Assembly (NCBI GenBank): GCA_024653775.1
Contig: JANLHZ010000268.1
Span: forward strand, 3,555 to 67,554
Direction of reading: 5' to 3'
DNA from: Planctomycetota bacterium
GTDB lineage: Bacteria > Planctomycetota > UBA8742 > JACQVU01 > JANLHZ01
Length of the DNA: 64,000 bases
Numbering within the stretch: position 1 is the first letter of the stretch; every line of letters begins with the position of its first letter. Below are positions 18,704 to 22,239 of this stretch, piece after piece. Both the position numbers and the translations under genes were made by a program. A model generated the notes under the pieces. The model did no database searches and had not been told where the DNA came from. It was given only the letters and a program-made list of their open reading frames with translations.

Positions 18704-21112
18704 TCATTTTCCATTCGTCGCGCGGGGGAGGGAATTCGCGACAGAAAGCACTCGCTCGCTCTCTTCGAGCCACGAAAGCACCTCTTCGTCCGTCGATTTC
18801 CGCGAGCCGAGAACTTTCCTTCGCTTCTTGAGGGATTTCCGCGCGTCGAGAAGCCCTTTCGCGACCCCGCCGAAGTAGCTTACCGCGAGCCCCGGATTTT
18901 TCGTGTGCCGCGCGAACTCGATCAGCGGGCGAAGCGCGATCGACCCGAAGTTCTTCCAGAACACCTTTCGCGGCACGTTTTTCACGACGAGATTCACCCA
19001 GTTCCTGCCGAGCAGGTACACCGTCTCCGGCGTGTACTGTTTGCCGTAGGTCGAGTGGCCTACGTGTTCGACGATCGCGTCCCGCACGAAAACGACCTCC
19101 CAGCCGAGGTGGCGCGCGCGGAACGAAAGATCGACGTCTTCGAGGTATGCGAAAAAGTCCTCGTCGAAACCACCTGTATCCTCGATGACTTCCCTTCTGT
19201 AAAGCGCCGCGCAGGCGCTCGCGCCGAAGACCGTGTGCCACGGATGGCCGTTCGTCTGCCAGAATGGAGTGTCTGTCAACTCGACCTTCCTTCCGTGTCC
19301 GATCTGGAACGGATACATCCCGCGGGTCAGTCCGTCGCCCGCGCTCTGGAGCGTATTCATGTCGAGGAACTCGACCACCCGGCTCGCGCACACGCCGACG
19401 TGCTCGTCCTCGTCCATCGGCTTGCGCAGGTTCGATAGCCATGACGGCGACGGTTTCGCGTCCGCGTTCAGAACCGCGATGTACGCGCCGTTCGCATCTT
19501 TGATGCCCGCGTTGACGTTCCCCGCGAAGCCGCGGTTCTCCGGCAGCGCGATAACATGCACCCACGGGTAGCTTTCCTCTAGCATCTGCGTGGTTTCGTC
19601 TTTGGAGCCGCCATCGACGACGATGACTTCGAAACTCTTGTCGTCGCTCTCTTCGAGTCCGATCAGGCAGCGGATAATGTGCTCGCGCGAGTTCCACGCG
19701 GGGATGATGACGCTCGTCTGGCACGCCGTCTTTCGGATAGCGCCCTTACGTTTCCGCGTCCGGCAGTGTTCCGCAAAAATCTTCGTGGCGTCCGCGACGA
19801 AGTCCTCGATCTCTTTCGACGTAAGTTCGTCGGTGCTGACGACCGCGCTGTGGAATCCGTCGAACTTCGAGAAATCGTCCGTCGACAGCCGACCTTCGTC
19901 CTGCATCTGCTCGTAGAGCTTCGAGCCGGGAAACGGCGTGGCGATCGAGAATTGCAGCGTGTCCGGATTCAGCTCCAGCGCGAGATCGAGCGTCTGCTGC
20001 ATGCTGCCTCGCGTCTCTCCGGGAAGGCCGAAGATGAACGTCAGGTGCAGGCGGATGCCGAGTTCGTGACAGAGCGCCACCGACCTTCGCACCTTGCCCA
20101 GATCGAGACGTTTGCCGACGTCGTCTACTATGTTCTGATCCGCGCTTTCGACGCCGAACTTGAGTGCGCGCAGTCCCGCCGCGTGCATCCTGCGTAGGGT
20201 TTCCTCGTCGCTCGTGTCGGCGCGCGCCATCACGGCCCACGGAATATTGAGGTTTCGCTTCTCAAGCTCTTCGCAGAGCGCGTACATCCTCGGCTTGCCA
20301 ATATTGAACGTGTCGTCGTCGAAATACACGCTCTGGACGCCATGTTCCTTCACGCAATGCTCGATTTCGTCGACTACGTCCTTAGGCGAGCGCACGCGGT
20401 ATTTGTTGTTGCCGTAGACCACCTGCGGGAACACGCAGAACGTGCAGGTGTACGGACAGCCGCGGCTGGTCCACATCTGTAGGCTCGGCGCGGGGATCCC
20501 GCCCGGCTCGTCGTGGTAGCGATCCATCTTCAAATCCCGGCGCATAGGCCAGGGAAGCTCGTCGAGCTGGTTGATCGTTTCGCGCCGGCCGGTACTCTGG
20601 CTGGCGCCGTTTTTGTCGCGGTAGAGAAGTCCGCCGACCTGCGAAAAGTCGCCATCGTTTGCGAGCGCTTTCAGCGCGTCGCGCAGGATATATTCGTACT
20701 CCCCGATCATCACGAAATCCGTCTCGGGCGTGCGATCGAGGAATTCGATGTTGTACATCTCCGCATGCAGCCCGGCGAAGAACATCTTCGCGTCGGGAAG
20801 CATCGCGCGCGCCTTCCTAGCGACCTGGATGTCGACGCCATAGCTCGGCGTGCTGACCTCCATCACGATCACGTCGGGCGAGAACGCCTTCATCCTCCTC
20901 AGGAACTCGCTTTCGCTTACATCTTCCGCGATGGCGTCGACCATCAGCGTTTTGTGGCCCTCTTTCTCAGCGACCGCCTGCGCGTACGCCATGAAGAACG
21001 GAAACGGCATGTAGTTCGCCGTGTCGTCCTCTAGGTGCGGCCATCTGCTCCCGGCGCGGACCCCGTAGAGTCCCTTCTGCCGCCAGGGTGCGTTTCCGAA
21101 GAATACTTTCAT
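18704..21112 (-). CDS. B12-binding radical SAM domain fused to glycosyltransferase family 2 domain
   Basis: N-terminal cobalamin-binding region followed by a radical SAM CxxxCxxC (GCPYTCTFC). C-terminal half VIIPAWNSREHI...VVDGGSKDET is a GT2 signature. Confidence 0.8.
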   Translation of the reverse strand: MKVFFGNAPWRQKGLYGVRAGSRWPHLEDDTANYMPFPFFMAYAQAVAEKEGHKTLMVDAIAEDVSESEFLRRMKAFSPDVIVMEVSTPSYGVDIQVARKARAMLPDAKMFFAGLHAEMYNIEFLDRTPETDFVMIGEYEYILRDALKALANDGDFSQVGGLLYRDKNGASQSTGRRETINQLDELPWPMRRDLKMDRYHDEPGGIPAPSLQMWTSRGCPYTCTFCVFPQVVYGNNKYRVRSPKDVVDEIEHCVKEHGVQSVYFDDDTFNIGKPRMYALCEELEKRNLNIPWAVMARADTSDEETLRRMHAAGLRALKFGVESADQNIVDDVGKRLDLGKVRRSVALCHELGIRLHLTFIFGLPGETRGSMQQTLDLALELNPDTLQFSIATPFPGSKLYEQMQDEGRLSTDDFSKFDGFHSAVVSTDELTSKEIEDFVADATKIFAEHCRTRKRKGAIRKTACQTSVIIPAWNSREHIIRCLIGLEESDDKSFEVIVVDGGSKDETTQMLEESYPWVHVIALPENRGFAGNVNAGIKDANGAYIAVLNADAKPSPSWLSNLRKPMDEDEHVGVCASRVVEFLDMNTLQSAGDGLTRGMYPFQIGHGRKVELTDTPFWQTNGHPWHTVFGASACAALYRREVIEDTGGFDEDFFAYLEDVDLSFRARHLGWEVVFVRDAIVEHVGHSTYGKQYTPETVYLLGRNWVNLVVKNVPRKVFWKNFGSIALRPLIEFARHTKNPGLAVSYFGGVAKGLLDARKSLKKRRKVLGSRKSTDEEVLSWLEESERVLSVANSLPRATNGK

Positions 21113-21331
21113 TGTATCGATTCTGTGGCTGATTCCGGGATATCGGGTTCAAGGCAATTATAACCCGTGGCGACGCTATCACAACCTTCTTGTAGGTGCG
21201 CGGAATTTTTAACCGTGAAACCTGGACTTCCTCATTTCGGTGACGACAAAATGGGGAGTGTCCAAAACCGTAAAAAAGCGTTACCGGCGAAGGGCGTTTT
21301 GACTGCCGCGTAACTTGATTTTTCGGCGGCT

Positions 21332-21598
21332 TTGAAGGATACTTGGTTTATGGATGACGCCGAGATACTTGCACGAATCGCATTCGATCCCAAAATACTA
21401 ACCGGAAAACCCGTAATTCGTGGTACGCGGCTGTCCGTTGAGTACATCCTGAATCTTATCGCCCACGGCGCCACTTACGAGGAAATACTAGACGAATACG
21501 AAGGTCTTTCGATCGACGATATTTATGCATGTTTGCTGTTCGCGACGAAATCCATTTCCGATTCTTCGTTCATGCCGCTATCTGTGGGGAAGGAGTAG
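21332..21598 (+). CDS. DUF433 family protein (antitoxin-like partner)
   Basis: ILTGKPVIRGTRLSVEYILNLIAHGATYEEILDEY is typical of DUF433. Confidence 0.7.
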   Translation: MKDTWFMDDAEILARIAFDPKILTGKPVIRGTRLSVEYILNLIAHGATYEEILDEYEGLSIDDIYACLLFATKSISDSSFMPLSVGKE

Positions 21599-21952
21599 AT
21601 GCGTTTTGTCGTTGATGAGTGCACCGGACCTAAAGTCGCGAAGTGGCTTCGGAGCCTGAATCACGATGTTTATTCCGCTTTTGACGACGCTCGCGGCTCG
21701 GATGATGACGAGCTTCTTAAGCTCGCTTTTGACGACGAGCGGATCCTCATTACAAACGACAAGGATTTCGGCGAAAAGATATTCCGCGAAGGAAAGCAGC
21801 ATAAAGGCGTCGTATTTCTCCGACTTGCCGATGAACGAAGCGTCGTCAAGATAAGGACGCTCGATTTACTGCTCCAGCAGTATGCAGGGGAGCTTTCCGG
21901 CAAATTCGTGGTGGTAACGGAAACAAAAGTCAGATTTGCGCGTACGCTATGA
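21599..21952 (+). CDS. DUF5615 family PIN-like nuclease (toxin-like partner of DUF433)
   Basis: MRFVVDECTGPKVAKWLRSLNHDV...ILITNDKDFGE. Start codon abuts the DUF433 stop. Confidence 0.7.
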   Translation: MRFVVDECTGPKVAKWLRSLNHDVYSAFDDARGSDDDELLKLAFDDERILITNDKDFGEKIFREGKQHKGVVFLRLADERSVVKIRTLDLLLQQYAGELSGKFVVVTETKVRFARTL

Positions 21953-22070
21953 AGAACGGAAAAGGCATGTAGTTCGCCGTGTCGTCCTCTAGGTGCGGCC
22001 ATCTGCTCCCGGCGCGGACCCCGTAGAGTCCCTTCTGCCGCCAGGGCGCGTTTCCGAAGAATACTTTCAT
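21933..22070 (-). pseudogene. duplicated 5' end (first about 43 codons plus upstream region) of the radical-SAM/GT2 gene
   Basis: 21939-22070 matches 20981-21112 with 3 mismatches. More diverged similarity continues about 130 bp into the upstream region. Encodes MKVFFGNAPWRQKGLYGVRAGSRWPHLEDDTANYMPFPFF then a stop. Confidence 0.85.
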
Positions 22071-22239
22071 CGCAAAAATTCGTTCTGTGTGGCACGGACG
22101 TCTCGTCCGTGAAGATCACGCGCGGGACGCGCGTGCTACTGGATATCGGGTTCGAACATGATTATATCGCAAACCCGGCTTAACTCAACGTTCTTGCAGG
22201 TCGAATCCGGAATCTATTCGAACGACCGACGTTCGGGAT

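Follow-up and report, generated by a model that had tools for sequence, protein, structure and literature searches.

Gene-end duplications around toxin–antitoxin-like and defence modules in a Planctomycetota contig are consistent with homology-anchored insertion

Few bacterial genes move horizontally as readily as type II toxin–antitoxin (TA) pairs, and most chromosomal copies carry no trace of their arrival. For restriction–modification (RM) systems, a class of insertion with long target duplication was reportedly defined by Nobusato et al. in 2000 (Gene 259:99). Here we describe a 64,000-nt stretch of DNA (positions 3,555 to 67,554 of contig JANLHZ010000268.1, Planctomycetota assembly GCA_024653775.1; referred to as the window) in which a DUF433/DUF5615 TA-like pair and further two-gene modules lie between near-identical copies of host gene ends. 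The window is a clean natural record bearing on the movement of TA modules without mobility genes. Its scars are unusually fresh and include three gene-end duplications with near-identical copies, a microhomology junction that can still be read, and nested stubs of greater age at one gene end. The fixation of TA modules was left unexplained in a review (PMC2654758).

In the RM class, the repeats measure 46–423 bp, the cargo is an RM system and the mechanism was left unresolved (Furuta, Abe & Kobayashi 2010, PMC2853133). The class is limited to direct repeats of >30 bp, which excludes ordinary transposon duplications, and to inserts of <20 kb with no mobility gene in or next to them (PMC2853133). 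A review assigns long target duplication to RM systems only (Mruk & Kobayashi 2014, PMC3874152). The sites in the window are built alike. Small, putatively addictive units of atypical GC content lie between long target repeats (104–135 nt, above the 30-bp limit), some repeats overlap gene ends, the inserts (0.63–1.7 kb, two genes each) are well below 20 kb, and no transposase or integrase was detected in them. Unlike the RM class, the cargo consists of type II TA-like pairs and a pair matching the candidate defence system PDC-M66. Moreover, boundaries fall on start or stop codons, one junction shows microhomology, and one insert carries a diverged version of the resident promoter. The RM class was defined by comparing genomes that include empty sites, whereas the present structures were read from a single contig. 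The sites are best filed as TA and defence examples that would extend the known pattern beyond RM cargo; they do not belong to the class in its strict first sense, nor do they form a new category.

An experimental parallel exists in Escherichia coli. There, linear DNA sharing homology at one end was first trimmed and closed into a circle and then integrated through a single crossover; 56 of 60 clones carried a duplication of 109–950 bp of the homologous gene end (Amarir-Bouhram et al. 2011, PMC3240628). True homology-facilitated illegitimate recombination (HFIR) was found in 4 of the 60 clones (PMC3240628). HFIR junctions are reported to carry microhomologies of 3–10 bp, often GC-rich (PMC3240628; de Vries & Wackernagel 2002 and Prudhomme et al. 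2002, cited therein). The sites in the window likewise show a duplicated gene end round foreign DNA and would combine one presumed homologous anchor with one illegitimate join. The E. coli events were laboratory events under selection, whereas the structures here are natural, recurrent and retained, and we infer both the form of the donor DNA and the role of RecA. A further parallel is the C-terminal displacement in Rhs and contact-dependent inhibition (CDI) proteins and the sequential displacement of effector–immunity modules of type VI secretion systems (T6SS), for which HFIR was proposed (Kirchberger et al. 2017, PMC5361080; Jackson et al. 2009, cited therein). There, as proposed here, modules recombine via a conserved gene segment, orphaned stubs of the previous end remain downstream and repeated rounds nest. 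The displaced part in those systems is the toxic tip of the same family, whereas the anchor here is a housekeeping or biosynthetic gene with unrelated cargo.

The first site lies at the start of a radical SAM (rSAM)/GT2 gene. The intact gene (18704–21112, minus strand) encodes 802 aa with B12-binding, Radical_SAM and GT2 domains (Pfam). Its match to an HpnJ-like NCBIfam model was weak and under the cutoff, and its GC content at third codon positions (GC3) was 0.81, similar to the remaining host genes. Codons 1–45 of the gene (copy 1, 20979–21112, minus strand) recur at 21937–22070 (copy 2, minus strand), with a start-to-start spacing of 958 nt. The two copies are 134 nt long and differ by three substitutions (20990 C/T, 21005 C/A and 21089 T/C; BLAST E ~7e-60). 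The initial annotation had placed the second copy at 21939–22070 with 3 mismatches. By pairwise alignment, this copy is real and slightly longer, and it forms a contiguous block rather than a few short words. The truncated 46-aa N-terminal peptide that had been reported for it was also recovered: the open reading frame (ORF) at 21930–22070 (minus strand) reproduces the rSAM/GT2 N-terminus apart from M41I and then stops. Copy 2 is a remnant of the rSAM/GT2 5′ end.

Past the start codon, the similarity between the copies falls sharply without disappearing. The region upstream of the intact gene (p′, 21113–21340) and the region upstream of the remnant (p, 22071–22239, minus strand) were aligned locally (21138–21207 with 22141–22214). 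The score was 42, compared with 16.4 ± 2.4 and a maximum of 29 in 1000 shuffles, so the weaker upstream homology proposed earlier was borne out. The alignment comprised 55 matching, 4 mismatched and 24 gap columns, and its blocks span the −35 hexamer, the −10 hexamer and a GGATATCGGGTTC motif. Sigma-70-like sites are predicted on the minus strand of both regions: TTGTGA-16-TATAAT in p′ (21184–21157) and TTGAGT-16-TATAAT in p (22188–22161). With a homologous promoter-like region and a TATAAT site predicted before each copy, the suggestion of a duplicated promoter is supported. The two regions differ by about seven indels, one of which is a 51-nt REPIN-like double hairpin (22089–22139) found in p and missing from p′. 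Blocks homologous to p extend to ~21207 in p′. The rest of p′ (~21215–21340, upstream of the antitoxin gene) showed no similarity to p, and when other TA loci were compared by BLAST, nothing matched the sequence that precedes the antitoxin coding region.

The drop in similarity at the start codon (at the stop codon in the acetyl-CoA synthetase gene discussed below) fits better with recombination partners that had only the coding end in common, or with a later conversion limited to the coding part. A duplication of ~240 nt in situ, whose parts then decayed unequally, is a poorer fit. The near-identity of the coding segment had been ascribed to selection or gene conversion. Selection is unlikely for a 46-aa stub, and conversion limited to the well-matched part is the half of this proposal that we retain.

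Between the two copies lie a DUF433 antitoxin-like gene (21341–21598, plus strand, 85 aa; Pfam E=5.5e-22) and a DUF5615 PIN-like toxin gene (21599–21952, plus strand, 117 aa; Pfam E=1.6e-21), both with full-length domains. The genes are co-oriented with the antitoxin first, and its stop codon immediately adjoins the toxin start codon. The pairing of DUF433 with DUF5615 was kept in all seven related locus families examined, and the acidic residues D6, E7, D54 and D56 of the toxin were invariant in the homologue alignment. The architecture and the domains predict an intact type II TA-like module.

The last four codons and the stop codon of the toxin gene fall within repeat copy 2, a point missing from the initial annotation. 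The gene reads TT up to the boundary and TGCGCGTACGCTATGA beyond it (the end of F, then A-R-T-L-stop). DUF5615 homologues are 116–122 aa long and share the ending T-E-T-K-V-R-F-A-R-(T/K/S), with AGGTTTGCGCGCAAGTAA (toxin gene of locus L018) or AGATTTGCCAGAACATAG as the DNA at this point. Accordingly, the first bases of the repeat encode the conserved F-A-R codons of the toxin, and the junction is a GC-rich microhomology. The shared sequence TGCGCGTACG(C) at 21937–21947 is common to the native 3′ end of the toxin gene (codons F-A-R-T) and to rSAM codons ~41–45 (antisense). The microhomology TGCGCG(TAC) is 6–11 nt long and forms the first bases of copy 2. This junction speaks for illegitimate recombination. 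A junction motif common to both rSAM sites was considered as well (GAAAACCAGATTTT at 17016 and CAAAAGTCAGATT at 21923). As the second encodes the conserved T-K-V-R-F of the toxin, the resemblance was judged to be chance.

The other end of the same gene carries a second site, found when the repeat search was extended to a wider region. A segment of 104 nt from the rSAM/GT2 3′ end is duplicated with one mismatch (16912–17015 and 18708–18811). The remnant (16899–17015, minus strand; 103 of 104 positions identical to 18708–18811) keeps its own ending ATNGNGAH followed by a stop codon at 16899–16901. The other copy (18708–18811, minus strand) lies within the 3′ end of the intact gene. The insert between them (17016–18707, plus strand) holds a HipA_2 kinase gene (17087–17908) and a DUF3037 gene (17933–18703), assigned by Pfam, with a GC3 of 0.51–0.54. 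The two genes match components A and B of the PADLOC candidate defence system PDC-M66. The intact rSAM gene now ends in ATNGK and a new stop codon, which adjoins the DUF3037 stop codon. The distance from the DUF3037 stop codon to the 104-nt repeat is 4 nt.

A search of the whole window revealed a third site at the 3′ end of the acetyl-CoA synthetase gene (acs), where 135 nt are duplicated with five mismatches (33840–33974 and 34609–34743). The second copy forms the last 135 nt of the intact acs gene (34609–36633, minus strand, Pfam). The first is a remnant that includes the TGA stop codon (33840–33974, minus strand). In the direction of acs, the insert (33975–34608, minus strand) consists of a REPIN-like element (34552–34604), an older acs-end stub of 53 nt with 81% identity (34494–34546), a DUF4258 toxin-like gene (34198–34488, Pfam) and the gene for its 74-aa partner (33977–34198), all on the minus strand. 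The stop codon of the partner gene overlaps the repeat by 1 nt. This overlap is the whole of the acs junction, compared with 6–11 nt at the toxin junction.

An older acs-like example was identified at 45016–45920 (plus strand) by repeat search and Pfam. An acs-like 3′ stub with 84% identity to acs (45016–45190) begins 16 nt past the stop codon of a transglutaminase-like gene, and no acs body was found upstream of it. A 69-aa gene and a nucleotidyltransferase-like gene follow (45248–45845), and a second acs-end stub (45865–45920, 79%) comes after this pair, so that the pair lies between two decayed stubs. The older, shorter and more diverged stubs may be traces of earlier rounds at the same conserved gene end. 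The presence of acs-end stubs beside two unrelated modules fits with conserved gene ends as reusable anchors.

The pair had been described as inserted at the 5′ end of the rSAM/GT2 gene. It does lie between two copies of the gene start, but the same layout at the rSAM 3′ end and the acs 3′ end points to a recurring process, not to a single local event. The three recent repeat pairs (134, 104 and 135 nt; 97.8%, 99% and 96.3% identical) each flank a two-gene module. High similarity ends exactly at the start codon at the 5′ site and at the stop codon at the acs site and in the older stub. At the rSAM 3′ site, it ends 12 nt before the original stop codon. GC3 was 0.43–0.61 in the module genes and 0.77–0.81 in host genes. 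By Pfam and PADLOC, the inserts contained only TA or defence families: DUF433/DUF5615, HipA_2/DUF3037, the DUF4258 pair and the nucleotidyltransferase pair. None was an RM system. The Pfam and PADLOC scans of the module ORFs and of other low-GC3 ORFs gave no match to an integrase or transposase family. No recombination core common to the junctions and no operator-like inverted repeats upstream of the modules were found. The genes neighbouring the inserts encode an MBL-fold hydrolase, a PilM-like protein, a secretin and acetyl-CoA synthetase. Flanking duplications were absent at three other low-GC3 defence modules of the window, namely HEC-01 (6863–8759), an AAA_15/21 pair (48317–49806) and AbiJ (46145–47026). 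A repeat pair at 52331/52770 (74%) was set aside because it represents two tandem paralogous genes, probably of VOC/glyoxalase type.

We think it slightly more probable than not that the two-gene modules entered by homology-anchored illegitimate recombination, without an integrase or transposase encoded by the element. The repeats, the positions of the junctions, the microhomology and the composition of the modules are observed directly in the contig; the order of events, like the donor DNA and RecA, is something we infer. The donor fragment would consist of a module and ~100–135 nt of the adjacent conserved end of a host gene. This gene end would pair with the resident gene, and the non-homologous end would be joined at a short GC-rich microhomology. 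Two routes can be envisaged. In the first, trimming and recircularisation of the fragment would precede its integration by a RecA-dependent single crossover of the Campbell type. In the second, HFIR would join the far end ~100–135 nt back inside the homologous segment. Either would produce the order gene end, module, second gene-end copy, with one complete gene kept and a stub left beside the old flank. At the 5′ site, the complete rSAM gene would now be under the promoter p′ borne by the fragment. We presume that the repeats served as anchors, with either copy as the one that may derive from the donor; their similarity stops at the gene termini.

Recombination between direct repeats this long would normally remove the intervening DNA, and modules that are toxic when lost would resist this. 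Putative addiction to TA or kinase-type pairs would account for the fact that each of the four cargoes belongs to this type. All four are TA-like, and the three other low-GC3 defence modules have no repeats, which suggests that addiction selects for retention.

Several points weigh against homology-anchored insertion. The nearest homologues are 48% (rSAM/GT2), 72% (acs) and 70% (toxin) identical and too distant to provide an empty site, a donor or a polymorphism. These values come from a scan of genome contigs with the rSAM/GT2 protein, with a best match of 48%, and from a large protein database, where the source protein was followed by matches of ≤48% (≤72% for acs). Furthermore, the donor must already have carried the module beside the same gene, which shifts the first adjacency one step back. 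The copies are 97–99% identical even at synonymous sites, and p and p′ differ by many indels. To explain this contrast, the donor must have been conspecific and have carried a divergent intergenic allele, or gene conversion must have been restricted to the coding part. Nor does the model predict that the repeats should be so similar in length (104–135 nt), which might be a compromise between efficient pairing and stability. Finally, addiction by these modules is itself putative. A paralogous donor in the same genome was also considered and rejected, as no second rSAM/GT2 above 48% or toxin above 70% is on record for this metagenome-assembled genome (MAG).

The modules could instead have inserted themselves by an unknown enzymology at staggered breaks ~100–135 nt apart, with fill-in duplicating the target, as Kobayashi's group proposed for RM systems. 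Such a true insertion with long target duplication, which we consider improbable, would match the architecture of the RM class, with variable repeats on the order of 100 bp and no mobility genes (PMC2853133; PMC3874152). The three recent repeats are alike in length. At the rSAM 3′ site, the insert leaves the gene 4 codons shorter and the duplicated block consists solely of internal target sequence, so no donor-borne gene end would be needed. However, the boundaries fall exactly on start or stop codons in most pairs, which is improbable for staggered cuts and would be a coincidence, whereas it is expected if the partners had only the coding end in common. The 5′ insert also holds a diverged homologue of the resident promoter, and the incoming DNA must accordingly have had a host-like flank. 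PIN-like RNases, HipA-like kinases and DUF4258 proteins are not known as DNA-cutting enzymes, and the idea of double-strand breaks by RM systems is therefore not transferable to this cargo. Taken together, the microhomology, the boundaries at gene termini and the diverged p′ in the insert favour homology anchoring over a staggered cut.

The two rSAM sites could also stem from a single event, in which a conspecific 4.9-kb segment (17016–21936) displaced the interior of the resident gene via illegitimate joins at both ends. The segment would comprise HipA_2, DUF3037, a complete rSAM/GT2 allele, p′ and DUF433/DUF5615, with the resident 3′ and 5′ stubs left behind. The stubs are indeed both ends of one gene, lie outside both modules in the expected order and are only 1–2% off the intact gene. 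Stub-leaving displacement via HFIR was proposed for Rhs and T6SS effector–immunity loci (PMC5361080). Nevertheless, this event seems unlikely to us. Two illegitimate joins at once and two earlier insertions in the donor mean more steps, and 2.4 kb of central homology would normally be resolved by ordinary crossovers, with the heterologous tails discarded. Moreover, the acs site shows a one-sided event of the same kind on its own. On parsimony and in view of this one-sided acs event, we favour two events at the rSAM gene.

Direct repeats of a gene end, with the end and the promoter supplied by the element, are typical of SXT/R391 elements, dusA islands and phages 21/e14. Such elements target prfC and dusA at the 5′ end and icd at the 3′ end. 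The sites in the window resemble these elements in the duplicated gene end and, at the 5′ site, in the start region and promoter supplied as a replacement. This resemblance could be accounted for by miniature integrative elements whose attachment site would include the replacement gene end and on which a tyrosine or serine recombinase would act in trans. Unlike the window, the known elements encode an integrase and have a defined core site. Neither was found here: no integrase family was detected in the modules or the other low-GC3 ORFs scanned, and the sole resemblance between junctions (AAAAGTCAGATTT and AAAACCAGATTTT) falls, at one of the sites, on conserved codons of the toxin gene and probably arose by chance. 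The modules are four unrelated ones at three different targets, and one junction is a microhomology within coding sequence. We regard this explanation as very unlikely. An assembly artefact, with strain variants or small circles threaded through shared k-mers, is the least credible explanation: although the source is a MAG contig and a repeat-plus-module circle together with an empty chromosome could mimic the linear path with short k-mers, the junctions between modules and gene interior have no k-mer in common with the uninterrupted gene (so spanning reads must exist), the copies of each pair differ by 1–5 substitutions and are distinct sequences, the same structure recurs at three independent sites and in older decayed stubs, and abundant non-replicating circles of 0.8–1.8 kb are implausible.

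If homology-anchored insertion is true, any conserved gene end beside a module can serve as its integration arm, and addiction explains the survival of unstable insertion-duplications. A more far-reaching idea, which we put forward tentatively and hold possible rather than probable, is that TA and small defence pairs have an integrase-free life cycle, in which a conserved gene end of ~100–135 nt acts as a portable homology arm. The pairs would excise as small circles via the flanking repeats, re-enter any genome with the same gene end and be kept because their loss is toxic. Conserved ends such as the acs 3′ end would then be recurrent landing pads for unrelated modules, and the life cycle would offer a testable answer to how TA pairs move between genomes without mobility genes of their own. 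For annotation, short ORFs like the 46-aa stub and duplicated promoters near TA pairs should be read as recombination scars, not as genes.

For generality, we inspected seven families of DUF433/DUF5615 loci from other genomes. In JGI metagenome contigs (L023–L026), the pair lies between 272-nt copies (84.6%) of a small ankyrin-repeat gene, with additional inner 54-nt repeats. The organism of L023 is AT-rich; its region ~3246–4929 contains ankyrin-repeat genes of 81–86 aa, and a promoter-like stretch is repeated before the TA pair and before the second ankyrin-repeat gene. In L016/L017, a DUF4160/DUF2442 pair neighbouring the DUF433/DUF5615 locus is flanked by 70-nt repeats (80%). In L029 (2903–5315), the DUF433/DUF5615 pair and a 91-aa ORF lie between palindromic elements of ~209 nt that resemble miniature inverted-repeat transposable elements (MITEs), and the flanking repeat in L018 is another palindromic element. 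No flanking repeats were found at the DUF433/DUF5615 loci L031–L033. A comparison set of unrelated metagenome loci (793 kb) yielded direct-repeat hits, of which 15 in 11 loci were inspected; most were paralogues or copies of repetitive extragenic palindromic (REP) elements. The signature of flanking gene ends thus turns up now and then elsewhere; in this window it is unusually dense and fresh.

Two further observations concern other loci. In L086 (3099–4123), a nucleotidyltransferase pair lies between 60-nt repeats that contain REP sequences; as in L029, the flanks are dispersed repeats and not gene ends. In a Syntrophaceae MAG (L005), the radical-SAM half of the rSAM gene is present twice (3506–4814 and 8708–10016; 92%), with 5.2 kb between the copies. 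Recent paralogues of the rSAM gene family do occur in other genomes.

The REPIN-like element is a doublet of REP-type hairpins of ~51–53 nt (GTGGCACGGACGTCYCGYCCGTG, a short spacer and CACGCGCAAGATGCGCGTGCCAC). Its copies at 22089–22139 (plus strand) and 34552–34604 (minus strand) gave folding z-scores of −4.35 and −3.49, and within the window it occurs only at these two module-insertion sites. Exact matches to the first hairpin occurred in at least 120 metagenome loci of soil, lake and marine origin; in L062, for instance, the element lies between gnd and zwf. Such conservation across so wide a range of samples is unusual for a REP unit. Among ~28 full copies of the doublet, the second hairpin covaries, and Rfam contained no family for the double hairpin. 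The doublet was rejected as a part of the modules because it is widespread as an intergenic element. It is probably independent and may act as a fragile site.

Other low-GC3 regions of the window also carry defence-type genes. The HEC-01 module (6863–8759, plus strand) encodes an AAA_21 ATPase and a DUF4276 protein, matches PADLOC HEC-01 A and B (E = 1e-189 and 1e-95) and lies between host genes. The protein with the AbiJ N-terminal domain (46145–47026, plus strand) is encoded directly after the acs-stub/nucleotidyltransferase module. The window's second AAA_15/AAA_21 ATPase and a 160-aa partner without a known family are encoded at 48317–49806 (plus strand), and the region 45000–49800 resembles a small defence islet. 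A low-GC3 run at 58299–63930 (minus strand) encodes an AAA_14/DUF4143 ATPase (58302–59591) and includes four ORFs of 229, 138, 568 and 178 aa without a Pfam match. It may be another foreign block at the end of the window.

Short AT-rich repeats of the type AATAATTAACAATTAATAATTAA and relatives occur at 24322–24368, 24701–24725, 37616–37650, 37782–37834 and 60266–60374. They are direct and inverted and lie in several AT-rich intergenic regions; one pair flanks a 350-nt AT-rich gap between a PilM-like gene and an FHA-domain gene. The region 15500–16000 is AT-rich and intergenic (33–44% GC) and contains a 54-nt near-palindrome (15688–15796) upstream of the MBL-fold hydrolase gene.

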